Assembly (NCBI RefSeq): GCF_050920415.1
Contig: NZ_CP169309.1
DNA: 64,000 nucleotides
Origin: Escherichia coli
GTDB taxonomy: Bacteria; Pseudomonadota; Gammaproteobacteria; Enterobacterales; Enterobacteriaceae
Direction: 5' to 3' (one strand)
The notes under the pieces were generated by a model. That model made no database searches, was not told the DNA's origin, and saw only the letters and a program-made list of their open reading frames with translations. Below are positions 23,269-38,874 of this stretch, one piece after another. Every line of letters begins with the position of its first letter. Position 1 is the first letter of the stretch. The translations under genes were made by a program, and so were the position numbers.

Positions 23269-23296
23269 GATTCTGCAGACACTGTCTGCAGAATTC
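23269..23296. repeat. Palindromic unit GATTCTGCAGAC-ACT-GTCTGCAGAATTC (fourth copy of the yhcG-internal repeat family), between convergent nanQ and yhcG
   Basis: Near-perfect 12-13 bp inverted arms around CAGAC-ACT-GTCTG; same core as repeats at 24031-24135. Confidence 0.75.
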
Positions 23297-23309: not shown

Positions 23310-24437
23310 TTAACGGCGTCTATAGCCTTCCTCTAGCACCGCTTGTGTTCGAACGAGTTCATCCGCGAGTCGTTTTTCATCAGGTAGTTGCATCTTATAT
23401 TCGCTTGCCAGAACGGTGTTAGGCAAACCAGCCAGTGCATAATGTGCTTCTCCGACTCCTTTTTCTGCACAGAGAACCAGACCGATGGGCGGATTTTCAT
23501 CCGGTAGCGTCCAGTGCTCTTTGGCGTAGTTGAGATACATATTCATCTGTCCGGCATCGCTATAGCTGAATTTGCCCACTTTTAGATCGACGATTAGCAG
23601 GCAGCGTAAACGGCGGTGGAAAAACAGCAGATCGACACGAAACCAGTTGTCATCAATGCGTAACCTTCGCTGTCGACCAACAAAGGCAAAATCATCCCCA
23701 AGTTCCAGCATGAAATCCATCAGGTGGTTGATCAGCGCCTCCTCAAAATCGGATTCTGAGTATTCATCTTTCAATTCCAAAAATTCGAGCACAAAGGGAT
23801 CGCGTATCGCCTGTTGCGGAAGAATATGCGTCTCGGCAGGGGCGTGTTGTTGCAGCATGGCTGATTTGTCATATGACAGTAGTGTCCGCTCATAAAATTG
23901 GGTCGCAATTTGCCGCTCTAGCTGGCGGACAGACCAACCACAGCGGAGCGCCTCTTTTTCATAAAAGCTGCGGGCGTCAGCGTTTTTAACGGAAAGTAGA
24001 CGGACGTAGGTGGACCAGGGCAGTGGGAAGGATTTGGCAGACAGCGTCTGCCAAATCTTTGCCGATGGGAATTCTGCAGACGGTGTCTGCGGAATTCCCA
24101 ATGGTGTTAATTCGCCAGACACTGTCTGGCGAATTTCAACATGTTGAAAAAAGAGGTAAAAAAGCCTCATTTGGCGTAAGTTTTTTGCAGAGAACCCACG
24201 CTTATACCTTAGACTTAAATCCTTTGAGAGCCGTTTGATAAGCTGTGCACCATAAGCCGCTCTGGCCTCGCCGCCTTGTTCAAATTCGACAATCCGTCGA
24301 CCAATTTCCCAGTATGTCGCGGTCATTAACGCGTTAACGCTACGTACCGTTTCCGTGCGGGCGCTATCGACCAGGTGAATAATACCGTCGTGGATTTGCT
24401 GGTAGCCTGCTGTGGTTCCTTCTGAGAGCGATTCCAT
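23310..24437 (-). CDS. yhcG: DUF1016/YhcG-family protein with C-terminal PD-(D/E)xK nuclease-like motifs
   Basis: 375-aa ORF; C-terminal ...RIDDNWFRVDLLFF...LLIVDLKVGKF resembles a PD-(D/E)xK core; contains in-frame tandem repeats (IRQTVSGELTPLG / IPQTPSAEFPSAK / IWQTLSAKSFPLPW). Confidence 0.85.
   Translation of the reverse strand: MESLSEGTTAGYQQIHDGIIHLVDSARTETVRSVNALMTATYWEIGRRIVEFEQGGEARAAYGAQLIKRLSKDLSLRYKRGFSAKNLRQMRLFYLFFQHVEIRQTVSGELTPLGIPQTPSAEFPSAKIWQTLSAKSFPLPWSTYVRLLSVKNADARSFYEKEALRCGWSVRQLERQIATQFYERTLLSYDKSAMLQQHAPAETHILPQQAIRDPFVLEFLELKDEYSESDFEEALINHLMDFMLELGDDFAFVGRQRRLRIDDNWFRVDLLFFHRRLRCLLIVDLKVGKFSYSDAGQMNMYLNYAKEHWTLPDENPPIGLVLCAEKGVGEAHYALAGLPNTVLASEYKMQLPDEKRLADELVRTQAVLEEGYRRR
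24031..24135. repeat. Three tandem 39-bp-spaced palindromic repeats inside yhcG coding sequence
   Basis: Units GATTTGGCAGACAGCGTCTGCCAAATC (24031-24057), GGGAATTCTGCAGACGGTGTCTGCGGAATTCCC (24068-24099), AATTCGCCAGACACTGTCTGGCGAATT (24109-24135); period 39 bp = 13 codons. Confidence 0.8.
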
Positions 24438-24635
24438 TATCTGTCCCTTTATATGGCGCTGCGTTGAATAATGGGATCAGCTATACGCCGGGCATCTGCC
24501 GGTAACAATCCAGGTGGGCTTGTTACATGGGTTTTCTTCACGTTATGCGAGGCGCTTTCCAGCAATTGTGCTGTAACGTTGTGCTGAAGATGAAGCAAAT
24601 AAAAAGGCCGGAGCGGGCGCATCCGACCAGAATTT

Positions 24636-25805
24636 TCAGGAAGTTTCTCTTGCTGTCACTACGCCATTTTGCGCAGCCCACAGATTCACATCTTCCTTAC
24701 GAATGGCGGCGGCCATCATGCCGGGGAATAAATCAGGGGTACAGGCAAAGGAGGGAATACCCATGGCGGCGAGTTTTCCTGCCAGTGACCGGTCGTAAAA
24801 CGGTGCGCCTTCGTCGCTTAAGGCCAGCAGGGTAACCACCTGTACGCCGGACTGAATCAACTCACTGGCGCGTTGCAACAGATTGCGTTCCACACCACCT
24901 TCGTAGAGGTCGGAAATCAGCACCAGAATGGTATTACGCGGATCGCGAATCAAAGACTGGCAGTAACCTACCGCGCGGTTGATGTCGGTGCCGCCGCCCA
25001 GCTGCACGCCAAACAGCAGCTCTACCGGATCGTCGAGCTTCTCTGTCATATCAACCACTGCGGTGTCGAAAACCACCAGATGCGTTTTTACCGCCGGGAG
25101 CGATGCCATTACTGCGCCAAAAATACTGGAATAGACCACCGAGGAGGCCATCGACCCACTCTGGTCGATACATAAAATGATCTCCTTTTGCGTGCGTTGA
25201 GACTTGCGCCCGTAGCCGATTAACGTTTCAGGAACAATACTTTTGTACTCTTCCTGCCAGTGGCGCAGGTTGGCGCGAATGGTGCGCTGCCAGTCAATTT
25301 CCGCGTGGCGCGGGCGACGATTACGTACCGCACGATTAAGAGCGCCGCTTACCGCGCTACGCATTGGCTCTTCAAGCTGTTTCATCAATTGCTCGACAAC
25401 TTTACGCACCACAATCCTGGCGGTTTCTTTGGTTTTGGCCGGAATTACGCCATTCAGCGACATCAGCGTGGAGACCAGATGAACATCAGGCTGGACGTTT
25501 GCCAGCATCTCTGGCTCCAGCAACATACTGTGCAAATTAAGACGTTCAAAGGCGTCTTTTTGCATCACCTGAACCACAGAAGAGGGGAAATACTGGCGAA
25601 TATCACCCAGCCAGCGAGCGACTTTGGGTGACGATCCACCCGTGCCGCCGCGTAATCCATGTTTACCGTCTGGCTGATAGAGCGCCGCCAGCGCGGCATC
25701 AATCGCGGACTCTCTGGCATCCAGCGCCACGTTACAGGCATTGTCGGCATCTTCTCCAAGGATCAGACGCCAGCGGCGCAGCCGTTCCATCTCGTTACTC
25801 GACAT
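24636..25805 (-). CDS. von Willebrand factor A (vWA) domain protein with MIDAS motif; YehP-like
   Basis: 389-aa ORF; DxSxS MIDAS motif in ILCIDQSGSM; last gene of the five-gene operon; overlaps upstream gene by 11 nt; SD-like GGGAA before ATG. Confidence 0.8.
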   Translation of the reverse strand: MSSNEMERLRRWRLILGEDADNACNVALDARESAIDAALAALYQPDGKHGLRGGTGGSSPKVARWLGDIRQYFPSSVVQVMQKDAFERLNLHSMLLEPEMLANVQPDVHLVSTLMSLNGVIPAKTKETARIVVRKVVEQLMKQLEEPMRSAVSGALNRAVRNRRPRHAEIDWQRTIRANLRHWQEEYKSIVPETLIGYGRKSQRTQKEIILCIDQSGSMASSVVYSSIFGAVMASLPAVKTHLVVFDTAVVDMTEKLDDPVELLFGVQLGGGTDINRAVGYCQSLIRDPRNTILVLISDLYEGGVERNLLQRASELIQSGVQVVTLLALSDEGAPFYDRSLAGKLAAMGIPSFACTPDLFPGMMAAAIRKEDVNLWAAQNGVVTARETS

Positions 25806-28044
25806 GATTTTCCCTTTCGTGTGGTGGCAAAGCCAGAATGCGGCGCAGTAGCGGCAGCATTAACGCGGCACGCTGTTCATCCCATATACCGCTGGTCTCT
25901 TCTTGCTGCGCGACACGCTCGCCCTGCGCGGCGCGTTCGCCTAACTGGCGGCGTTCCGGGCTGGAAAAACGGCCGAATGTCCGCCGCAGCATCGGCAGGA
26001 TCCGGGTGAAGTGATTGTCGTTCAGGCCGCTTAGCCAGGCATCGATCAACTGCCATAATTCGCTATTGTGCAGTAGCACCATCGCGCTGTCGTTGAGGAA
26101 ACCTTCCGCCCATGCGGCACTTTCCGCCGGGGGATTGGCTGGCGATAGCGCCAGGTTCATCAGCGTGGTGATCCGTTCTGTCGTTAACGTTTGCAGATCA
26201 AACAACAGGCGCGTCGCCGTTCCGCGAAGCAGCGCGTGTGCGGTACTGCCCTCTGCCAGCACCATCAACGCCTGCAACCAGCCCGCCAACAGATCTTCGT
26301 TATCCAGCAACCGCAGCGCGGCGTGAGCGTCGATAACTTTTTCTCTCATACTGGCGGCGCTGTCGTCGTTGAGCGCCGAACAGGCACCGGGTAGGGCGAT
26401 GGCGGCGCGCGGGGCGAGGCTCATCAGTACCTGCATTACCATACCAGAGTCGGTCTGGCGCACGTTGCCGTAGCGGACAATCGCCACCAGCGGTGCCAGG
26501 GCTTCCAGCAACTGTTCGATATTGCCCTGAGTGGCAGCCAGTGATTCCAGTGTATTGGCGATGGGGGCAATCGCGGCCTGTAAATCGGCCAGTAGCACTT
26601 GTTGGATAAGCTTTGCCAGTTCCGGCAGCGTGCTGGCGTATTGCGCCCTCACAATGGCATAGCGGGAGCTGGCCTGCTCAATGCTGTTACCCCAACGGCT
26701 GGCGGTAATGATGTTCATTGCCAGTGCCGGTTCCCAGCGCAGCGACCAGACTTCGTGGAACGTCCCTTTGCTGTTATTTCCTTGTCCAGCCAGACGGCCC
26801 CAGGAAATGTCGAGTAAGGTCAGGCGATGCAGTAAATGGCTACGCGCCAGATCGCCGGGTTTGCGCAGATCAAGATCCAGCACTTTTTCGCTGGCTTCTG
26901 CCTTCAGGCGCAGCGTTTTTTGCTGTTGCGTAATGTCGCGTTGGAGCGGCACGACGGGCGTATCATCCGGTACGCTTCCCAGCGCGTCGCCGACAATTAA
27001 CTTCTGGCGAATCATCTGCATTGGCGCGCTTTCGCCCATACACACTACGGTTTGCAGCGCTTCGCAAAGTTCGTCAAGCCCCGGCTGCGGGTGATGGCGC
27101 ATAATCGCCAGCGTCTGCGCCAGCCGCGCCGCTTCGATAATGTGGGCGCTGGAACAGTCGAGATCGGCTTCGCGAAACAGCCTTGCCGCGCGTGACAGCC
27201 AGCCGATATCGCGGTGAGAAGCGCCCTGATAACGCCACAGATGATCGTACCATTCCGGTGACACCACCCCTGCGCCATAACCGCTGGCGCGGCTTAACGC
27301 CTCGTAGCTCCAGGGCGTCCAGGCTGCCGCGACCTTGCACTTCGGCAAATTTTTCAGCAGTTCGTTATCATTCTTTGCGGGCGGCAGGTTTTCCAGCGCC
27401 GGAACGTGCCACGCACCGCAGACTACCGCGATGCGCGAGAAGCCCTCTTTTTTCGCCTGACGTAGCGTCTTGCGCATATACGCTTCACGCAGTTGATCTC
27501 TGGCTGAGTTTCGGGCTTCGGGAGTTGCCTGGCGTAGGGCAATCATCGCCTCGCGAATCGCCTCGAACAGAGACAAATCATCTTCGCGTTCCTCTACTCT
27601 GTGGCTCCACCAGCTTTCCCCATCGGTGTAACCGGCGGCGCGGCCCAGCCAGTCCAGCGGATCGCCGTCGGGACTGGCTTCAACGGCATCATCGTCATCG
27701 CTCTCTTTTTCGTCATCAAGCGCGAACTGATGACTGATGGGCAAGTCCATAAAGCGCACGGCGATATTTTGCTCAAAACCATAGCGCAGCGCCTGCCATT
27801 CCGGGGAGAACGCCGCAAAGGGGTAAAACGCGGCGTGATGTGAGTCGTCCGGGGCATAAATCAGTAGCGCGACCGGCGGTTGCATCTGTTCATGCTGCAT
27901 GAAAGGCAGGATGGATTCGCCGTCGGGCGGCCCTTCCACCAGCAGGCAGTCGGGCTGTAGCGTCTCCAGCGCCTTTCGCAGGCTGCGCGCGCAGCCAGGG
28001 CCATGGTGACGGATGCCAAACAAATGAACGGTTTGTTCAGTCAT
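25795..28044 (-). CDS. Large uncharacterised protein (749 aa) with N-terminal TraB/PrgY/GumN (TIKI)-like motifs; YehM-like by size and position
   Basis: N-terminal VHLFGIRHHGPG...DCLLVEGPPD and later RIAVVCGAWHVPAL resemble the two conserved motif blocks of the TraB/TIKI family; long helical C-terminal region; domain call from motif recognition only. Confidence 0.7.
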   Translation of the reverse strand: MTEQTVHLFGIRHHGPGCARSLRKALETLQPDCLLVEGPPDGESILPFMQHEQMQPPVALLIYAPDDSHHAAFYPFAAFSPEWQALRYGFEQNIAVRFMDLPISHQFALDDEKESDDDDAVEASPDGDPLDWLGRAAGYTDGESWWSHRVEEREDDLSLFEAIREAMIALRQATPEARNSARDQLREAYMRKTLRQAKKEGFSRIAVVCGAWHVPALENLPPAKNDNELLKNLPKCKVAAAWTPWSYEALSRASGYGAGVVSPEWYDHLWRYQGASHRDIGWLSRAARLFREADLDCSSAHIIEAARLAQTLAIMRHHPQPGLDELCEALQTVVCMGESAPMQMIRQKLIVGDALGSVPDDTPVVPLQRDITQQQKTLRLKAEASEKVLDLDLRKPGDLARSHLLHRLTLLDISWGRLAGQGNNSKGTFHEVWSLRWEPALAMNIITASRWGNSIEQASSRYAIVRAQYASTLPELAKLIQQVLLADLQAAIAPIANTLESLAATQGNIEQLLEALAPLVAIVRYGNVRQTDSGMVMQVLMSLAPRAAIALPGACSALNDDSAASMREKVIDAHAALRLLDNEDLLAGWLQALMVLAEGSTAHALLRGTATRLLFDLQTLTTERITTLMNLALSPANPPAESAAWAEGFLNDSAMVLLHNSELWQLIDAWLSGLNDNHFTRILPMLRRTFGRFSSPERRQLGERAAQGERVAQQEETSGIWDEQRAALMLPLLRRILALPPHERENHVE

Positions 28045-28061
28045 AGTGGTTGCCTTGCTGA

Positions 28062-29156
28062 TTACACAATTTCGCGGCAGGCGCGATAGAGATCGTTCCA
28101 GTCGCTGCGCTCTTTGACGATAGTTTCCAGATATTCACGCCATACCACGTCGTCCTGCACGGGATCTTTTACCACCGCGCCGATAAGGCTTGCGGCGATA
28201 TCCCGCGGATGCAGCACGCCGTCGCCAAAATGGCCCGCCAGCGCCATACCGTTGTTGATAACGGAGATCGCCTCCGCGGTGCTGAGAGTACTGGTTGGCG
28301 ACTTAATTTTCGTTTTGCCGTCAACCGTCAGGCCGTTTCGCAGTTCGCGGAAGATTTGCACGACTCGCTGGATCTCTTTAAGCGCTGGCGGTTTGGCAGG
28401 AAGTGCCAGCGCCTGACCCAGTTCGGCGACGCGGCGAGTGACAATGTTAATCTCTTCTTCTTCGCTGGCGGGTACGGGCAAAATGACCGTGTTGAAACGA
28501 CGTTTAAGCGCGGAAGAAAGCTCGTTAACGCCTTTATCCCGGTTGTTGGCGGTGGCGATAACGTTAAAGCCGCGCGTCGCCTGGACCTCTTCATTCAGTT
28601 CGGGGATAGGCAGCGTTTTTTCCGACAGGATCGTGATCAGCGTGTCCTGAACATCAGCAGGAATACGCGTCAGCTCTTCTACGCGTGCAATCTGCCCGCG
28701 CGCCATCGCCCGCATCAACGGACTTTCTACCAGCGCCAAACGTGACGGACCTTTAGAGAGCAACTCCGCGTAGTTCCAGCCATAACGCATTTGTTCTTCA
28801 CCGGTGCCTGCGGTGCCCTGAATAATTAACGTTGAGTCGCCGCTGATGGCAGCCGCCAGATGTTCAGATACCCAGGATTTCGCAGTGCCGGGTACGCCAT
28901 ACAACAGCAGTGCGCGATCGGTTGGCAGCGTGGCAACGGCGGTTTCGATAATCCGCCGGTTGCCGATATATTTCGGCGTGACCTCAAAGCCATTTTCCAG
29001 CTGCCCGCCCAACAGATAGGTGGCGACGGACCATGGAGAAATGGCCCAGTTTTCCGGGCGCGGATGAGTATCGTTTTTTTGCAGCTCATCCAGTTCTTCA
29101 GCAAATTGTTGTTCGGCATGTCGGCGTAAAACGGCGGCAGTAGCGGTAGCATTCAT
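28062..29156 (-). CDS. MoxR-type AAA+ ATPase (YehL-like)
   Basis: 364-aa ORF; Walker A GVPGTAKS; sensor-1-like FNVIATANNRD; ATGA overlap with upstream gene. Confidence 0.82.
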   Translation of the reverse strand: MNATATAAVLRRHAEQQFAEELDELQKNDTHPRPENWAISPWSVATYLLGGQLENGFEVTPKYIGNRRIIETAVATLPTDRALLLYGVPGTAKSWVSEHLAAAISGDSTLIIQGTAGTGEEQMRYGWNYAELLSKGPSRLALVESPLMRAMARGQIARVEELTRIPADVQDTLITILSEKTLPIPELNEEVQATRGFNVIATANNRDKGVNELSSALKRRFNTVILPVPASEEEEINIVTRRVAELGQALALPAKPPALKEIQRVVQIFRELRNGLTVDGKTKIKSPTSTLSTAEAISVINNGMALAGHFGDGVLHPRDIAASLIGAVVKDPVQDDVVWREYLETIVKERSDWNDLYRACREIV

Positions 29157-30757
29157 AAAGTGGTTTCTCCGACAAAAAGCGAATTAAGTTGAATTCGGTT
29201 CGCCAGCGCGGCGCTCAGGGCAGTAAAGGCTGCCTCGCAATAAGGCGTTTGTTGTGCGTCGTGCGGCCACTTGTCAATGACATCATTGAGGACTTCGGGG
29301 GCCAGCAGGCAGGCGAAATCACTCATCACATGGCGCAGGGCGTAGTCAAAGCGCGCGGAATCATATTTCACCCAACGGTGTAGCTCCGTGACCATTTGCT
29401 GGCTCAGGCGCAGGCTAAAGAGCGACGCATCCAGCGGTAACAGGCTGATGTAGCGATGTAAATGTTCGCCGCCCACCACTGAGAACAATGACCGTAACAT
29501 CGGCTCGTGTTCTTCTACAGGCAGACATTGCAAAAGCTCAAAGGCGTTAATCTTCACGCCTGCAGGATGATGAATGCTCATTCCGACGGGCAGCATGGCG
29601 AGAAACGCCTGCGCCCACTGCGGATTTTTTTCGCGCAGTACGGCGTGATACCAGGCGCGCAGTAGCGCCTTCTGCCAGTCGGTTTTCCCGGCCCAGCGCA
29701 GCAGTTCAACGGGGGTAGCCTGCAGTTGCGTTTGCCACCAGTCGAGCGGAACCGCTGCAACTATCTGATACAGCCACCATGCGCGCTGGCCCAACTTTTC
29801 GCCTTTGGGCTTAGTTTCTTCCAGCGCATCGGCCTTCCACTCTGGTAAGAACGCCTCCGGGGCATCAAGGGCGACGTGCAGCATTTTTTCTTTGCCGGAT
29901 AAGCCTTTTAGCCTTTCAAGTAAGGTCTCAGGAGCGGGGGATGAACTGAGCAACGGCGCTAACCGAGACTTCATGCGCGAGATCCAGGCGCTTTCCGGCA
30001 GACAACACAGTAACCGTGCCGCAGTTTGCCGCACCTCTTTGCTGCGATCGGATAATGTCTGTTCCAGAAAGGCTTCGTCGTGTTGGGAGATCTCCACTTC
30101 CAGCACAGCCAGCAGCTGTGCGCGTTCGCGGGCATCCAGCGAACTCATCTCCTGCGCCAGCCGATCGCGACCCTGTTCCGGGGCGCGAATGCGCATTTGC
30201 GTCAGATATTGCAGACGCTGTTCGGACGTGCCGTGCAGCCACATTTCTTCATCCAGCGGAGCGTCAACGGAGGCAAGAAAATAGCGCCAGTCGGCGTTAA
30301 TTTGCGCCAGCCAGCGCCCGCGAGCGCCGAGGACATTGGGCAGAATGCCGCGTATTGATGGATTTTGTACGCCGTAATTCAGCAGTGCCGGTAACAGCAG
30401 GGGCGGAGAAAGAAGCTGACGCTGGACCAGGTGATCAAGCGCTGACCACAGTAAACGCGGCGGCCCTTCTGCCAGCAACAGATGCAGCAGTCCCGCAAAA
30501 GCCGGGTTGTTTATTGGCTCGGCATTTTCTTTATCGATTTCCGGCAGCGGTGCGGGGTCAATCGCCTGCGGCACCCAGCCAGCCAGATGGCAGAGCGCCA
30601 GAACGCCCGCCGAGCGCAGTAGCTGTTGCTCTGCGGATGTGTTATTCGCCAGTTCAGACAGTAACAGCCCAATCTCACTTTGCGACGCCGACGGTGTGAA
30701 CGCTTTTTTGTCTGTGCCGAGTAGCGCTGTGCGGGTTAAATTTTGCCATTCGTTCAT
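29153..30757 (-). CDS. Uncharacterised protein (about 534 aa), helical, no recognised catalytic motif
   Basis: Long ORF (ORF track 29153-30778); preferred start ATG at 30757, which has GGAGG 7 nt upstream and forms an ATGA overlap with the stop of the SWIM gene. Confidence 0.7.
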   Translation of the reverse strand: MNEWQNLTRTALLGTDKKAFTPSASQSEIGLLLSELANNTSAEQQLLRSAGVLALCHLAGWVPQAIDPAPLPEIDKENAEPINNPAFAGLLHLLLAEGPPRLLWSALDHLVQRQLLSPPLLLPALLNYGVQNPSIRGILPNVLGARGRWLAQINADWRYFLASVDAPLDEEMWLHGTSEQRLQYLTQMRIRAPEQGRDRLAQEMSSLDARERAQLLAVLEVEISQHDEAFLEQTLSDRSKEVRQTAARLLCCLPESAWISRMKSRLAPLLSSSPAPETLLERLKGLSGKEKMLHVALDAPEAFLPEWKADALEETKPKGEKLGQRAWWLYQIVAAVPLDWWQTQLQATPVELLRWAGKTDWQKALLRAWYHAVLREKNPQWAQAFLAMLPVGMSIHHPAGVKINAFELLQCLPVEEHEPMLRSLFSVVGGEHLHRYISLLPLDASLFSLRLSQQMVTELHRWVKYDSARFDYALRHVMSDFACLLAPEVLNDVIDKWPHDAQQTPYCEAAFTALSAALANRIQLNSLFVGETTL

Positions 30758-32076
30758 TGTGCGCCTCCGGTTGCCCAAATCACGCTACCGGCAAGCCAGG
30801 CGCTACAGGGCGTCAGCTGCTGACCATCCCATTCCCCCATTAGCATAAACGGCGCGCCGCCGCTGGCCGCCAGTAACCGCCAACCCTCGTCCGACGACAG
30901 GTGCGTCGGTAAGTGCTGGCCCTGTGTCGAGACGAATCGCCAGCCGCTCTCGTGCGGGTAAATCAATATTTCGCTTACTCGCAGCGGCAGAGGCCATTGC
31001 CAGGGATTCGCGCTAAGCCGCTGCGCCATGTCATGCAGCGCGTCCGGGAGGGGTAATTCTGCAAGCGGGAATCTTTCACCGCGGGTAAACGGCTCCACAA
31101 TCCGCGCCCGTAGCGGTGATGCGCCAGGGAAAAAGGCAAGCGCGCCCTGGCAGACTTGCCCGGTGATAAAGTGCTGGGGAAAGTTTTTACCACCGTGTGA
31201 ATAGTCCAGCAGTAGCGCGGTGCGGTGGCTCTTTTCTCCGTACAGCCAGACCCGGCGTCGCCACAGATTATTCTCTTCTTGCGCGCTTTGGCCTAAGACC
31301 TGCCAGTTATCAAGGCAGGTTAGTCCGTCAGCGATGTCATGTTTATCCGGGGTTATTCCCAATGCTGCATGGAGATCGCTAAGTTGTGCCGGGGATAACA
31401 TTTGTTGCTGGCGCCAGGCGTCAATAATCAGCTGTAGCTGCCCCAGTTCTTTGCACAGGCTCGATGGCCATACCTCGGCGGTAGTAAAAAGAGTGGTCAG
31501 ATTGTTCAGGCGAGCGGCAATTCCCGGTAGTTGAGCGTCGACCATGCGGGCGGCGATCCCGGCAAAAGGCAACTGTTGTGCAGAGATCTGCGCCAGACCG
31601 TGGCGGATCAGGTCGTGCATCCACTGTTCGAGGAAATCCAGCCCCGCCGTCATTTTTTGGTTGCGTGCCGCTTCCCGTTTGGCGGCAGCCTGCGGGTCGG
31701 CAGCTTTTGCCTCAGCCTGCTCTTTCTTTTCTTCTTTGCGAACCGCTCGCTGCTGGCGCGAGGTTAGCCACTCGCTTACCCATTCCGGCGGCTCGCCAGC
31801 GGTGAAACTTGCGGTGTGTTGCACCTGGAGCAAAAGCAACGCAAGGCTATGTTTACAGGGGAATTTACGGCTGGGGCAGGAACATTTACAGGCCAGATCC
31901 TGCCTGTCGACCCGTACCTGATAAGGGCGGGAGCCGCTGCCTTTACATTCTCCCCAGAACGCGGTCTCGCTATATCCCAGCGTCGGCCATTTTGCGGGGG
32001 CAACCAGGCCACGAGCCGCTTTAACCGAGGCGTCATCGGGCGCCAGGGCTTGCACTGATTCAACGGTCAGTTCCAT
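30754..32076 (-). CDS. SWIM zinc-finger domain protein (YehQ-like), first gene of operon
   Basis: 440-aa ORF; CxCxnCxH signature in DLACKCSCPSRKFPCKHSLALL; remainder unrecognised. Confidence 0.75.
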   Translation of the reverse strand: MELTVESVQALAPDDASVKAARGLVAPAKWPTLGYSETAFWGECKGSGSRPYQVRVDRQDLACKCSCPSRKFPCKHSLALLLLQVQHTASFTAGEPPEWVSEWLTSRQQRAVRKEEKKEQAEAKAADPQAAAKREAARNQKMTAGLDFLEQWMHDLIRHGLAQISAQQLPFAGIAARMVDAQLPGIAARLNNLTTLFTTAEVWPSSLCKELGQLQLIIDAWRQQQMLSPAQLSDLHAALGITPDKHDIADGLTCLDNWQVLGQSAQEENNLWRRRVWLYGEKSHRTALLLDYSHGGKNFPQHFITGQVCQGALAFFPGASPLRARIVEPFTRGERFPLAELPLPDALHDMAQRLSANPWQWPLPLRVSEILIYPHESGWRFVSTQGQHLPTHLSSDEGWRLLAASGGAPFMLMGEWDGQQLTPCSAWLAGSVIWATGGAQ

Positions 32077-32239
32077 TACAATTCTCTATTGGCGTGGGGA
32101 AATCGATGGGGTCAAGGAGGCGTTAAGCAAAGCAGGAGGAGACTGTTTTCCGTAACAGCGTATTGCGCGTCCATCGCAAATTTGTAGTGAGTATAGCGGG
32201 CGGTAAATTCAGGAAACAATGGCGGATAGCGGAAAGTGT

Positions 32240-32298
32240 AGTTTTTCGGAAAAAGATAACTTTATCCCGTGTAACCCGTTTTAAGCGGGCTACACGGG
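32240..32298 (-). terminator. Putative terminator downstream of gltD
   Basis: Minus-strand hairpin CCCGTGTAGCCCGCTTAAAACGGGTTACACGGG 8 nt after gltD stop, followed after a spacer by a T5 run; U-tract not directly adjacent. Confidence 0.4.
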
Positions 32299-32308
32299 AG
32301 GCTGCAAT

Positions 32309-33739
<1,431 letters not shown>

Positions 33740-36700
33740 TTACTGCGCCTGCACGCGCAACTCTGCTGCGCTACGACTACGGTGACCCAGCAGTGCTTTT
33801 ACATCACTGGACTTCGGTTTAACCAGCGCAAATTTCGTGGCGAAGGTTGACCAGTTAGCCAGAATCTCTTCACCACGCTGGGAACCGGTATGCTGAACAT
33901 GCTCGGTGATAAGACCACGCAGATGCTCTTCATGGATCGCCAGGGAGTCAACGCTTAAGACCTCGACCAGTTCCGGGTTAACGCGTTTGCGGAAATCGCC
34001 GCTTTCATCGAGAACGTAAGCGAAGCCGCCGGTCATGCCCGCGCCGAAGTTAACGCCGGTTTTACCCAGAATACAGACAATACCGCCCGTCATATATTCA
34101 CAGCCGTTGTCGCCAATGCCTTCTACCACGGTGATAGCACCGGAATTACGCACGCCGAAACGTTCACCCGCGCGGCCTGCGGCATACAGACGACCACCGG
34201 TCGCGCCATACAGGCAGGTATTGCCGATAATGCTTGCTTCATGGCTGCGGAAGGCTGAGCCAACCGGAGGACGAATGGCGATTAAGCCGCCCGCCATGCC
34301 TTTACCGACATAGTCGTTGGCATCACCGGTCAGGTACAGTTCCACGCCGCCCGCGTTCCACACACCGAAGCTCTGGCCTGCGGTGCCGTTGAAGTACGCT
34401 TTAATCGGATCGGCTGCCAGCCCCTGATCGCCGTGCGTCTGGGCGATATAGCCCGAAAGCGATGCACCCACGGAACGGTCGGTGTTGCGAATATCGAACC
34501 AGAAGGTTTTGCTCTGACGCTCATCGACAAACGGTTTTGCCTGTTGCAGCAACTGCGCGTTTAGCAGGCCATTATCAAACGGCGGGTTGTTTTCGGTACA
34601 GTAGAGCGCCTTACCTGGATGCGGCTCGGCAGTCTCCAGCAGCTTCGACAGCGCCAGTTTCTGCTGTTTGGCGGTGAAACCGTCCAGCTCTTTGAGCAGG
34701 TCGGTACGGCCAATCAGATCCACCAGGCGCGTTACGCCCAGTTGCGCCATCAGCTCGCGGGTTTCACGGGCGATAAATTCAAAGTAGTTGGTCACTTTGA
34801 ACGGTAAGCCGTGATAGTGGTTCTTACGCAGTTTGTCATCCTGAGTTGCTACACCGGTGGCGCAGTTGTTCAGGTGGCAGATTCGCAGGTATTTACAGCC
34901 GAGCGCCACCATCGGGCCAGTGCCGAAGCCGAAGCTTTCTGCGCCGAGAATCGCCGCTTTGATGATATCGACACCTGTTTTCAGGCCGCCATCGACCTGC
35001 AAACGGATCTTATGACGCAAGCCGTTGGCAACCAGCGCTTGTTGTGTTTCAACAAGCCCCAGTTCCCACGGGCAGCCTGCGTATTTCACCGATGAAAGCG
35101 GACTTGCGCCAGTGCCGCCGTCATAGCCTGCGATGGTGATTAAATCGGCATAAGCTTTCGCTACACCTGTGGCGATGGTACCAACGCCCGGTTCGGACAC
35201 CAGCTTCACGGAGATCATCGCTTTCGGGTTGACCTGCTTGAGGTCGAAAATGAGCTGCGCTAAGTCCTCGATAGAGTAGATATCGTGGTGCGGCGGCGGG
35301 GAGATCAGCGTCACTCCGGGCACCGAATAGCGCAGTTTGGCGATGTAAGGAGTGACTTTGTCGCCCGGCAACTGACCGCCTTCGCCCGGCTTCGCGCCCT
35401 GGGCGACTTTAATCTGAATGACGTCAGCATTGACCAGGTACGCCGGAGTAACGCCGAAGCGACCAGAAGCCACCTGCTTGATGCGCGACACTTTGTTAGT
35501 GCCGTAGCGCGCCGGATCTTCACCCCCTTCACCGGAGTTCGAGTTACCGCCGATGCTGTTCATCGCTTCCGCCAGCGCCTCGTGGGCTTCCGGGCTTAAC
35601 GCGCCGATAGACATCGCAGCAGTATCGAAGCGTTTAAACAGTTCGCTTGCCGGTTCAACATCAGCAATGTTGACCGCGTTTTCACCCGGTGTAATTGCCA
35701 GCAGATCGCGCAGCGTGGTTGCCGGACGTTCATTAACCAGCTTCGCGTATTCCTGATAGTCGCTATACTCGCCGCTCTGTACCGCCTGTTGCAGCGTGCG
35801 CACCACGTCCGGGTTGTAGGCGTGGTATTCGCCACCGTGCACATATTTCAATAGGCCGCCCTGGCTGATGGGCTTGCGCGCCAGCCAGGCACGTTTCGAC
35901 AGATTCAGCAGATCCTGCTGGAAGTCTTCAAAGCTTGCCCCACCAATGCGGCTGACCGCCCCCTGGAAGCACAGGCCCACTACATCATCGTGCAGACCGA
36001 CCGCTTCGAACAGTTTCGAGCAGCGGTAAGACGCGATGGTGGAGATGCCCATTTTGGACATGATTTTGTACAAGCCTTTGTTGATGCCGTTACGGTAGTT
36101 GAGCATCACGGTACGATAATCTTTGGCAATCGCGTGGGTGTCTACCAGGCGGCCCAGCGTTTCATAGGCCAGGTACGGATAAATAGCCGTCGCGCCGAAG
36201 CCCAGCAACACGGCGAAGTGGTGCGGGTCGCGGGCGCTGGCGGTTTCGACGATGATGTTGGCATCGCAACGCAGGCTTTGATCGACCAGACGAGTCTGGA
36301 TCGCGCCAACCGCCATTGGGGCCGGAACCGGCAGGCGATCTTTAGCGATATTCCGGTCGGAGAGCACCAGCAGCACGGTGCCGCTACGTACCATTTTTTC
36401 GGCTTTGTCGCACAGCTCTTTGACCGTCGATTCGAGCGTGGTTTTAGTGACGTCAAAGGTGATATCCAGTGTATCTGCGCGGTAGTGCTCCTCTTTCATC
36501 GTCGTGAGCTGTTTGAAATCGGAGTAGAGCAGAATCGGCGATTTAAAACTTAAACGGTGCGCCTGGCCCTCTGCTTCACAGAAGACGTTCATTTCACGCC
36601 CGATGCTGGTGGCGAGCGACATAACATGCGCTTCACGCAGTGGGTCGATTGGCGGGTTGGTGACCTGGGCAAATTGCTGGCGGAAGTAATCGTAAATAAT

Positions 36701-38293
36701 GCGCGGCTGACTGGAGAGCACGGCGAATGGGGTGTCGTCGCCCATCGAACCGACCGCTTCCTGACCGTTTTCACCCAGTACGCGAATTACGGAGTCCAGC
36801 TCTTCCGCGCTGTAGTTAAACTGTTTCTGGTAGCTGACAAGCGTGTCGTCGTCCAGTTCGCGGCTACCCACTTCTTCATCGGGCAGATCTTCAAACGGTA
36901 CCAGACGGCGGACGTTTTTCTCCATCCACTCTTTATATGGATGGCGGCTTTTCAGATCGTCATCGGTTTCTGCCGAGTGCAGAATACGCCCACTGCGGGT
37001 GTCGATAACCATCAGTTCGCCTGGCCCCACGCGGCCTTTTTCGACCACTTCGTCAGGCTGATAATCCCAGATACCGACTTCAGAGGCGCAGGTGATGAGC
37101 TTATCTTTGGTGATGACGTAGCGCGCCGGACGCAGACCGTTACGGTCGAGGTTACAGGCAGCAAAACGACCATCGGACATCACGATGCCCGCCGGGCCAT
37201 CCCACGGCTCCATATGCATGGAGTTAAAGTCAAAGAAGGCACGCAGTTCCGGGTCCATATCCGGGTTGTTCTGCCAGGCGGGTGGTACTAACAGACGCAT
37301 GGCGCGGATGATATCCATCCCGCCCGCCAGCAGCAGTTCCAGCATGTTATCCATGGAACTGGAGTCAGAGCCGGTTTCGTTGACGAACGGCGCGGCGTCG
37401 TGCAGGTCAGGGATCAGCGGTGTCTGGAATTTATAGGTACGCGCGCGCGCCCATTGGCGGTTACCGGTGATGGTGTTGATTTCACCGTTATGCGCCAGGT
37501 AGCGGAACGGCTGTGCCAGCGGCCAGCGCGGTACGGTGTTAGTGGAGAAGCGCTGGTGGAACAGGCAAATGGCCGATTCCAGACGCAGGTCCGCAAGATC
37601 CAGGTAGAAGCGCGGCAGATCCGCCGGCATACACAGACCTTTATAGATGTTCACCAGATTCGACAGGCTACAGACGTAGAAGTCTTTGTCAGCTTCGAGA
37701 CGCTTTTCAATGCGGCGGCGGGCGATAAACAGACGGCGCTCCATATCGCGCGGACGCCAACCTGCCGGGGCGTTCACAAAAATTTGCTCAATGCGTGGCA
37801 GAGAGGAGAGGGCGATTTCACCCAGCACGCCTTCGTTAGTGGGGACATCACGCCAGCCGACAATCGACAACGTTTCGCGTTGCAGCTCTTCTTCAACGAT
37901 GCGGCGTGCGGTCGCGGCGAGTTCAGGATCTTTATTCAGGAAAAGCATCCCGACGGCGTAGTTTTTCGCTAAACGCCAGCCTCGCTCCTGCGCAACAATG
38001 TGAAAAAAGCGATCCGGTTTTTGTAACAGCAAGCCGCAACCGTCACCGGTTTTACCATCGGCGAGAATCGCGCCACGGTGCTGCATGCGGGCCAGTGCGT
38101 GTATTGCAGTACGCACTACCTTGTGGCTAGGTTCGCCTTCTATGTGGGCGATCAGGCCGAAACCACAGTTATCCCTCTCAAGGGATTTATCGTACAACAT
38201 ATCGTGAACCTCCCCCAGGCTCTGCGGGAACCCCACTTCCGAACCGCTGCGCACGGGCACAGAAAGAGCGTGGCGACGGGGTTTGCGTTTCAT
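33740..38293 (-). CDS. gltB: Glutamate synthase large subunit
   Basis: about 1517-aa ORF from MKRKPRRHALS...; amidotransferase Cys in ...LERDNCGFGLIAHIEGE; the ORF track extends 5 codons further to 38308. Confidence 0.96.
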   Translation of the reverse strand: MKRKPRRHALSVPVRSGSEVGFPQSLGEVHDMLYDKSLERDNCGFGLIAHIEGEPSHKVVRTAIHALARMQHRGAILADGKTGDGCGLLLQKPDRFFHIVAQERGWRLAKNYAVGMLFLNKDPELAATARRIVEEELQRETLSIVGWRDVPTNEGVLGEIALSSLPRIEQIFVNAPAGWRPRDMERRLFIARRRIEKRLEADKDFYVCSLSNLVNIYKGLCMPADLPRFYLDLADLRLESAICLFHQRFSTNTVPRWPLAQPFRYLAHNGEINTITGNRQWARARTYKFQTPLIPDLHDAAPFVNETGSDSSSMDNMLELLLAGGMDIIRAMRLLVPPAWQNNPDMDPELRAFFDFNSMHMEPWDGPAGIVMSDGRFAACNLDRNGLRPARYVITKDKLITCASEVGIWDYQPDEVVEKGRVGPGELMVIDTRSGRILHSAETDDDLKSRHPYKEWMEKNVRRLVPFEDLPDEEVGSRELDDDTLVSYQKQFNYSAEELDSVIRVLGENGQEAVGSMGDDTPFAVLSSQPRIIYDYFRQQFAQVTNPPIDPLREAHVMSLATSIGREMNVFCEAEGQAHRLSFKSPILLYSDFKQLTTMKEEHYRADTLDITFDVTKTTLESTVKELCDKAEKMVRSGTVLLVLSDRNIAKDRLPVPAPMAVGAIQTRLVDQSLRCDANIIVETASARDPHHFAVLLGFGATAIYPYLAYETLGRLVDTHAIAKDYRTVMLNYRNGINKGLYKIMSKMGISTIASYRCSKLFEAVGLHDDVVGLCFQGAVSRIGGASFEDFQQDLLNLSKRAWLARKPISQGGLLKYVHGGEYHAYNPDVVRTLQQAVQSGEYSDYQEYAKLVNERPATTLRDLLAITPGENAVNIADVEPASELFKRFDTAAMSIGALSPEAHEALAEAMNSIGGNSNSGEGGEDPARYGTNKVSRIKQVASGRFGVTPAYLVNADVIQIKVAQGAKPGEGGQLPGDKVTPYIAKLRYSVPGVTLISPPPHHDIYSIEDLAQLIFDLKQVNPKAMISVKLVSEPGVGTIATGVAKAYADLITIAGYDGGTGASPLSSVKYAGCPWELGLVETQQALVANGLRHKIRLQVDGGLKTGVDIIKAAILGAESFGFGTGPMVALGCKYLRICHLNNCATGVATQDDKLRKNHYHGLPFKVTNYFEFIARETRELMAQLGVTRLVDLIGRTDLLKELDGFTAKQQKLALSKLLETAEPHPGKALYCTENNPPFDNGLLNAQLLQQAKPFVDERQSKTFWFDIRNTDRSVGASLSGYIAQTHGDQGLAADPIKAYFNGTAGQSFGVWNAGGVELYLTGDANDYVGKGMAGGLIAIRPPVGSAFRSHEASIIGNTCLYGATGGRLYAAGRAGERFGVRNSGAITVVEGIGDNGCEYMTGGIVCILGKTGVNFGAGMTGGFAYVLDESGDFRKRVNPELVEVLSVDSLAIHEEHLRGLITEHVQHTGSQRGEEILANWSTFATKFALVKPKSSDVKALLGHRSRSAAELRVQAQ

Positions 38294-38874
38294 ACGCGCG
38301 CCTCGCATTCGCCCCCTTGTTGTCCTTTTCGCATCGATTAATACGGTGAAGAGGGGATCTCAATTACTGCATAAATATGATGAGCAGGCTGCTCATCCAG
38401 AAAGCTTCCAGCGGATTTCCAACTTATCGGGAAAGCTGATACAGGTCAAATGGCAAGCTTATTGGTACAGAAATGTGCTTTAGCGCAAAATTCTTTATTA
38501 ATTCATTGAAATTAAAAAGGATTTGTTAATTAAGTTGAAAAGAGGCGTCGTTAGGGAAGCAGTCATTTCCTGACTGTCATAAAGGCGTGTTAACCCTTAT
38601 CCTGCCTTGAACTGATGAGAAAACCAGCATTTTATACTGCCTTAATTGGTAATGACGTTTCATGCTACTGTTTTTGCCTAAAATCCATAAGGAGATAAAA
38701 AAATCTGACACAAGATAAGCAAAAGTGATTTATGTGATTATGCATGAAATTTCGGTAATTTTGATTGATTATGCAATTGATAAAAGCAGGCTGGGACGAT
38801 TGATCCAGGTCATCGCCGAATTGAGCTAAAAATGGCAGGCTTTGGCCTCTTTTCAAGGCGCGGTCTATCAGATT

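Follow-up and report, generated by a model that had tools for sequence, protein, structure and literature searches.

The gltD gene in this stretch of the Escherichia coli chromosome is followed by a stable and conserved hairpin that, as far as can be read from the DNA, is not a canonical intrinsic terminator, and that looks like the protective 3' structure of a Rho-terminated gltBD mRNA. The operon that comes next on the same strand probably has a promoter of its own. We give about even chances to the composite picture, in which a Rho-type 3' end of the gltBD message and the operon's own control region share the gap between the two transcription units. The layout is an ordinary, known kind of regulatory architecture; its interest lies in the cassette, a rare five-gene SWIM/MoxR/VWA unit for which transcription-unit boundaries can now be proposed.

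The window, that is, the whole 64,000-nt stretch analyzed, is E. coli chromosome and is 100% identical to strain MFDS1022581. Gene names were taken from the RefSeq annotation of NZ_CP169399.1, a record that is also 100% identical, and minus-strand features are written from the high to the low coordinate. On that strand the order is gltB, gltD, a 232-nt gap, a packed operon of five genes in which neighbors overlap or almost abut (ORF list), yhcG and the nan genes (Table 1). An earlier note on this DNA had called the locus an island, and the label is borne out by its distribution. Of 5426 complete E. coli genomes, 33 carry the SWIM gene and the spacer, each time together and next to gltD, and K-12 has gltF-yhcADEF where the cassette sits. 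Between the K-12 and the cassette arrangements, the gltD stop codon is the precise point at which homology breaks off. At 53-60% G+C the cassette is like gltBD, and neither the annotation nor the Pfam scan showed an integrase or transposase gene at the cassette. The spacer sequence is the same in 32 of the 33 E. coli carriers, whose SWIM genes are 97.8-100% identical to that of the window. For comparison we used sister lineages from public assemblies (L003/L016 and L010), in which the SWIM proteins are 91% (L003) and 91-94% (L010) identical to that of the window, and a distant enterobacterial lineage (L004/L005/L017).

Table 1. Genes and proposed control elements around the gltD-SWIM spacer (window coordinates, high to low).
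Feature	Coordinates	Strand	Details
gltB	38308..33740	minus	
gltD, glutamate synthase small subunit	33727..32309	minus	TAA stop 32311..32309; ORF list and RefSeq annotation
gltD-SWIM spacer, 232 nt	32308..32077	minus	the SWIM ORF begins at 32076
Stem-loop U-CCCGUGUAGCCCG / CUUAAAA / CGGGUUACACGGG-A	32299..32265	minus	5' arm 32299..32286, loop 32285..32279, 3' arm 32278..32265
C-rich, G-poor, weakly structured tract	32259..32182	minus	candidate rut region for gltD transcripts; 25 C and 7 G in 78 nt
T5 run	32254..32250	minus	10 nt past the stem; probably not a terminator U-tract
TTCCGAAAA block	32251..32243	minus	in the palindrome TTTTTC-C-GAAAAA (32254..32242); upstream edge of the sequence in common with the distant lineage
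-35-like hexamer TTGTTT	32219..32214	minus	3/6 matches; spacing to the -10 18 nt; little conserved (L004 has TTACCG)
-10-like hexamer TATACT	32195..32190	minus	5/6 matches, context GCTATACTCAC; candidate SWIM-operon promoter
Predicted leader (5' UTR), about 105 nt	32184..32077	minus	C-rich; most conserved part of the spacer
Possible 20-codon upstream ORF MDAQYAVTENSLLLLCLTPP*	32174..32112	minus	ATG at 32174; weak candidate
Imperfect leader hairpin UGUUACGGAAAACAG / UCUCCUC / CUGCUUUGCUUAACG	32157..32121	minus	pyrimidine-rich loop
Weak Shine-Dalgarno and SWIM start codon	32087..32074	minus	AGAGAA 32087..32082, ATG 32076..32074
Five-gene SWIM/MoxR/VWA operon	32076..24636	minus	Pfam scan, RefSeq annotation
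SWIM gene, first in the operon	32076..30754	minus	ATG 32076..32074; Pfam scan
DUF5691 gene	30778..29153	minus	Pfam scan
AAA_5 MoxR-like ATPase gene	29156..28062	minus	Pfam scan
DUF5682 gene	28044..25795	minus	Pfam scan
VWA_CoxE (CoxE-type VWA) gene, last in the operon	25805..24636	minus	Pfam scan
Canonical-looking intrinsic terminator after the VWA gene	24628..24597	minus	GGUCGGAUGCGCCCGCUCCGGCC then UUUUUAUUU; -14.2 kcal/mol, z -2.6

The earlier note had reported a GC-rich minus-strand hairpin 8 nt after the gltD stop, a T-run beyond it and a spacer of 232 bp before the SWIM gene, and most of this holds. The sequence CCCGTGTAGCCCGCTTAAAACGGGTTACACGGG occurs once in the window, at 32298..32266 on the minus strand, and both the length of the spacer and the later T-run are as described. 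The hairpin does lie close behind the stop codon, but its stem begins 9 nt and the quoted CCC 10 nt past it. With an extra U-A pair, the structure has a 7-nt loop closed by 14 bp, one of which is a G.U. Its folding energy of -25.9 kcal/mol (z = -7.0) was matched by none of 200 dinucleotide shuffles, and it is the fourth strongest 40-nt local fold of the 64-kb window. It is unaltered in the 33 E. coli genomes and in L003. Against the latter its 35 nt show no change, as compared with 21.1% of third codon positions changed in gltD and 16.8% in SWIM. The sole substitution seen in any lineage, a C for T in L010 (spacer position 35), turns the G.U into a G-C pair and brings the fold to -28.3 kcal/mol. 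The hairpin is real, conserved and constrained. A dispersed palindromic repeat of the REP/BIME kind was considered and rejected, as the sequence stands in one place per genome in the 33 carriers and in none of the other 5393 genomes. Searches of the window at up to 3 mismatches and of plasmids returned no copy beyond the single one, and the Rfam covariance models gave no family match, the lone match (E = 9.5) being one expected by chance.

In having a GC-rich stem of 14 bp and a loop of 7 nt, the hairpin resembles a canonical intrinsic terminator, from which it differs in lacking an adjoining U-tract. The U-tract looked for was a stretch of 8 nt with 5 U or more that begins no further than 2 nt past the stem; the first 8 nt past this stem are UAAAGUUA, with 3 U among them. 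The more distal T5 run is not conserved either, as it reads TTATT, with A for the middle T, in L003, L016 and L010, all of which keep the hairpin intact. A consensus terminator scan of the minus strand of the window reported no terminator. Read from these features, the hairpin is not a canonical intrinsic terminator, and the premise implied in the earlier note, that hairpin and T-run together make a classical one, is not sustained. The missing U-tail is informative because the operon's own end, 8 nt past the VWA stop codon, has a hairpin directly followed by UUUUUAUUU; the consensus scan overlooked this second structure in which, by our count, 9 nt are unpaired between the outer seven pairs, where the loop limit of the scan is 8.

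A different class of 3' end fits better what lies downstream of gltD. In E. coli, Rho-dependent transcripts have 3' ends just past stable stem-loops without U-rich tails, which shield them from 3'-5' exonucleases, and their rut sites sit just downstream of these stem-loops (Dar and Sorek 2018, PMC6061677). Both parts of this pattern are found here, namely, a stable stem-loop at the gene end that is not followed by U-rich sequence and, immediately downstream, untranslated RNA that is C-rich, G-poor and weakly structured. The C-rich tract takes up spacer positions 50-127, and in C/G ratio it belongs to the top 0.02% of 78-nt windows, both strands counted. No other part of the region is as little structured, its mean unpaired probability being 0.61 and that of its flanks 0.40-0.43; the tract has no conserved ORF, and 14 YC dimers occur in the 86-nt stretch 32264..32179. 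The likeness to the published Rho-dependent ends is therefore one of arrangement (hairpin near the stop codon, no U-rich tail, then C-rich RNA), and by this analogy the hairpin looks like the protective 3' structure of a Rho-terminated gltBD mRNA. The difference is that the tract after gltD overlaps the DNA of the next operon's putative promoter and leader, so that its C-rich composition could serve the operon's own transcript and not the termination of gltBD.

In the mechanism that we propose, ribosomes would leave at the gltD stop codon and the stem-loop would fold 9 nt further on. Rho would then load on the naked C-rich RNA and halt most transcription within or just past the gap, after which 3'-to-5' exonucleases would trim the message to the base of the stem-loop, the hairpin thereby stabilizing the gltBD mRNA. 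The predicted steady-state 3' end lies near window positions 32264..32259, which is where the end of the gltBD mRNA should be looked for. Because such termination is factor-dependent it may be incomplete, and since Rho termination is rarely complete some gltBD read-through is possible. Partial read-through into the operon, which the earlier note had put forward as an alternative to an independent promoter, is possible and is compatible with termination of this kind.

The gltD 3' end of K-12 provides an analogue. There a hairpin (AUUCGCCAGAC-UGU-GUCUGGCGAAU, -17.1 kcal/mol), also without a U-tract, lies 15 nt past the gltD stop. The primary gltD 3' end identified by Term-seq in M63 glucose is at 3360660 (Adams et al. 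2021, PMC7815308, supplementary file 1), which in our own mapping of coordinates onto the K-12 locus (L002) is 4 nt past the stem, and a Rho termination region has been placed at 3361307, inside gltF (Rho score 4.10, p = 2e-16; PMC7815308, supplementary file 2). Similar to the cassette arrangement are the strong hairpin without U-tract after the stop of the same gene and the same-strand gene cluster downstream. The sequences, however, are unrelated, homology stopping at the stop codon, and the C-rich stretch begins about 140 nt further downstream in K-12 than in the island allele. The K-12 hairpin, moreover, belongs to a family of palindromes, SCAGAC-NNN-GTCTGS, that is also present in and after yhcG, whereas the island hairpin is single-copy. 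The dependence on Rho proposed here is drawn from composition and from this non-homologous analogue. The same study lists a second, orphan K-12 Term-seq 3' end at NC_000913.3 3360783 (+), 123 nt past the primary gltD end (PMC7815308), and an earlier deep-sequencing study reported a 90-nt cis-antisense sRNA candidate, ECS0018, in the K-12 gltBDF operon (PMC3175480).

In the distant lineage (L004/L005/L017) yet another unrelated hairpin, at -27.3 kcal/mol and again without a U-tract, lies 8 nt past the gltD stop. Three non-homologous alleles downstream of gltD, those of the window, K-12 and the distant lineage, accordingly each have a strong hairpin, and none has a U-tract. The recurrence of the same structure from three unrelated sequences speaks for a function in the gltBD message itself and not in the gene that follows. 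It suggests a convergent design, in which the gltBD message would need such a 3' cap regardless of the sequence downstream.

As regards the operon's own promoter, the best sigma-70-type candidate in the window, L003 and L010 is TTGTTT-18-TATACT. Its score of 9.2 is not significant alone; for the best score per shuffle, the median is 7.6 and the 95th percentile 11.3. The built-in promoter scan, at 9/12 matches, found no promoter in the spacer, and a check by eye for the sigma-54, sigma-28 and sigma-E consensus gave no convincing match. More telling is conservation in relatives, which for TATACT extends to both the element and its position. The hexamer lies inside a conserved block, 119 nt from the ATG in the window and L003 and 118 nt from it in L004, and in L010 it is found unchanged at the spacer position that it has in the window. 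The proximal 170 nt or so before the SWIM start align with L004/L017, in which the SWIM protein is 69% identical. The blocks conserved with the distant lineage are TTCCGAAAA, CCG-TATACTC-CT, ATGGA, GTTGTTAYGGAAAACAG...CTGCTTTG..TAACGCC and the ribosome-binding region; the first of them could be an upstream promoter or activator site.

The gene order of the distant lineage (L017) is arcB, a uxuA-like gene, yhcC, gltB, gltD, a frame-shifted yhcG remnant (matching YhcG residues 164-240 and 326-369 at 77% identity), the SWIM operon and nanQ. In this lineage, 784 nt separate gltD from the start of SWIM, and the hairpin of E. coli is missing. Since the proximal 170 nt have been kept despite the pseudogene in between, they move with the operon, which the hairpin does not. 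On this comparison the SWIM operon probably has its own promoter. The earlier note had also placed an independent promoter in the spacer; the conservation of the proximal segment with its TATACT supports that proposal, on other grounds than the hairpin and T-run then invoked. The segment from about 32251 to 32077 would be the operon's control region, with a weak, -35-poor promoter of the sigma-70 type whose -10 element is the TATACT at 32195..32190. Its CTATACT context in E. coli would suit sigma-S too, and the promoter is possibly activator-dependent. The operon would be transcribed chiefly from this weak promoter, which lies some 105 nt ahead of the start of SWIM. The transcription start site of the operon, predicted near 32184..32182, is the second place to look.

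The predicted leader is the part of the spacer that varies least. From spacer position 125 to the ATG there are no changes in L003 and 3 in L010, and blocks are conserved with L004. The stems of the leader hairpin are kept and its loop varies between lineages (L004); its energy is -8.4 kcal/mol in the window (z -0.6, not significant) and -13.9 kcal/mol in L004 (z -2.8). The RNA structure of the whole spacer is not better than that of shuffles (z -1.0), and a consensus fold of the leader showed almost no covariation. We keep the upstream ORF as a weak possibility only; its ATG is conserved in L004, in which a 1-nt indel shifts the frame, and the peptides differ. CsrA-type sites were rejected, as the three conserved A(U/C)GGA motifs amount to an ordinary GGA count, reached by 562 of 5000 shuffles.

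The leader may hold a regulatory element. One form that this might take, which we consider quite unlikely, is an undescribed attenuator in the C-rich leader, with its hairpin and kept ATG, that makes expression of the operon conditional and to which leaky gltBD read-through adds. Such an attenuator could work by Rho-dependent premature termination, modulated by translation of the short upstream ORF or by an RNA-binding protein. If this were true, transcription from the gltBD promoter, which is strongly controlled by nitrogen and Lrp, would partly escape Rho behind the gltD hairpin and contribute as read-through, and the SWIM/DUF5691/MoxR/DUF5682/VWA operon would be tied to nitrogen status.

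The variation in the spacer should be read with its surroundings in mind. Eight E. coli haplotypes segregate at 17 sites in the 100 nt that end gltD, at 1 in the 232 nt of the spacer and at 13 in 300 nt at the start of SWIM, and divergence from L003 is 2.2% in the spacer, compared with 7.3% in gltD and 8.5% in SWIM. Against the distant lineage, the proximal spacer differs by 32.7% and is no better conserved than SWIM (28.7%). The SWIM differences cluster in tracts common to sister lineages, and mosaic recombination, instead of selection, could be in part responsible for how little the spacer varies within E. coli. The extreme conservation within E. coli was accordingly tempered as a proof of selection, the diversity of SWIM and gltD being mosaic and driven by recombination. 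Taken from these alignments, the spacer pattern is evidence that hairpin and leader are constrained, and of nothing exceptional. When the SWIM protein and an alignment of close relatives were searched against species-representative genomes, no enterobacterial locus was found, and the lone match was epsilonproteobacterial and 30% identical. The conserved leader pattern recovered from metagenomes just the L003 lineage again (L016), and on plasmids neither a close relative of SWIM (36% identity at best) nor a spacer match was present.

Other explanations of the hairpin and of the gap have to be weighed against a Rho-type end followed by a separate promoter. The hairpin, perhaps with the distal T-run, might be a weak, non-canonical intrinsic terminator that stops a fraction of transcripts without Rho while the rest enter the operon. 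Its very stable GC-rich stem and short loop, the 3 U in the first 8 nt, the T5 run 10 nt downstream and the short distance from the stop codon, which is common for terminators, would all suit such a role; even so, we think it unlikely, given that the defining U-tract is absent directly after the stem, that the T-run is not conserved and the hairpin is, and that the operon ends with a proper hairpin and U-tract, so such signals are in use at the locus. The K-12 analogue, in addition, is tied to a Rho termination region. An arrangement that would dispense with the second promoter altogether has the operon depend mainly on a gltBD-SWIM read-through transcript, in which the hairpin would be an intercistronic stabilizer or processing stop that sets separate levels of gltBD mRNA and operon mRNA. 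All the genes are on the same strand with a gap of just 232 nt, there is no significant promoter match, the SWIM gene of a 56%-identical relative (L006) starts 21 nt past the upstream gene, which indicates co-transcription in the operon family, and the neighboring K-12 gene has been described as a member of a gltBDF operon (PMC1784095). This arrangement nevertheless seems improbable to us, as it sits badly with the retention in L004 of about 170 nt and the -10 hexamer despite a decayed pseudogene and 784 nt to gltD, and a highly expressed gene followed by a long stretch of untranslated, C-rich RNA offers Rho its classic substrate.

The repeat could also act as DNA, either as the operator of a dimeric regulator of the operon or as the scar left by, or the target used in, the recombination by which the cassette came to lie after gltD, and a near-perfect inverted repeat of 13 bp, conserved in all carriers and located where K-12 homology ends, would be in keeping with this. 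We hold it to be very unlikely, however, because some 70 nt separate the repeat from the candidate -35 downstream and it directly follows a stop codon, a position typical of RNA 3' structures, and because the single substitution seen strengthens an RNA pair. Nor does the other end of the cassette have a matching repeat, the sequence being single-copy in the window; the distant lineage retains the operon module without it, and no integrase or transposase gene is present. That the hairpin is a functionless chance palindrome has practically no likelihood, considering its z of -7.0 with no shuffle among 200 folding as well, the 1 match against 0.00 expected in the pattern search, and its conservation where synonymous sites have diverged by 17-21%.

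The closest known relative of the operon under the control of this spacer is the K-12 cluster yehLMPQ, of the MoxR AAA+/VWA/SWIM type. YehL, YehM and YehP have paralogues in the AAA_5 (40% identity), DUF5682 (27%) and VWA (37%) proteins of the cassette, respectively, which are encoded at window 24636-29156; yehL-yehM-yehP of K-12 lie at 8597-13104 of L018. The gene order differs, SWIM being last in the yeh cluster, whereas the cassette has SWIM and DUF5691 in front, and at an E value below 1e-3 BLASTP matched neither of these two proteins to YehQ. Homologues of the operon are spread over many phyla, with examples in Deinococcus, Hymenobacter, Rhizobium and Nocardia megaplasmids. A relation to the PADLOC defense families was discarded, as the ATPase alone matched, twice, both times to IetA (E = 0.002-0.003), which was treated as noise. 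No mention of DUF5682 or DUF5691 was found in the literature.

Some further features of the flanking genes were observed. The last 190 nt or so of gltD (window 32309-32500) are only 90-95% identical to most E. coli genomes, and the synonymous sites in this 3' end are unusually polymorphic among the island carriers, as the 17 segregating sites in its last 100 nt illustrate. Judged from these alignments, the pattern fits an import of the cassette and part of gltD from diverged Escherichia lineages, later partly overwritten by recombination. The position of yhcG, of the PDDEXK nuclease family, relative to the cassette also varies. In E. coli the order is gltD, SWIM operon, yhcG and nanQ; in the distant lineage (L004 3217-4000 / L017 9217-10000) the frame-shifted yhcG remnant lies between gltD and the SWIM operon, which is followed by nanQ; and in the island-bearing strain SMS-3-5 (NC_010498.1; L008 17679-17801) an N-terminal yhcG fragment alone is left after the VWA gene. 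The sequence comparison suggests independent insertions or rearrangements around this gene.

The palindrome SCAGAC-NNN-GTCTGS has 4 exact copies in the window (23275-23289, 24037-24051, 24076-24090 and 24115-24129), compared with 0.42 expected, and these copies give rise to the window's two strongest local hairpins. One copy is just past the yhcG stop and three are in the yhcG frame, 39 nt apart, where they encode a 13-residue triplication (IRQTVSGELTPLG / IPQTPSAEFPSAK / IWQTLSAKSFPLP). The K-12 hairpin after gltD (L002 ~8633-8657) has the same core as this family.
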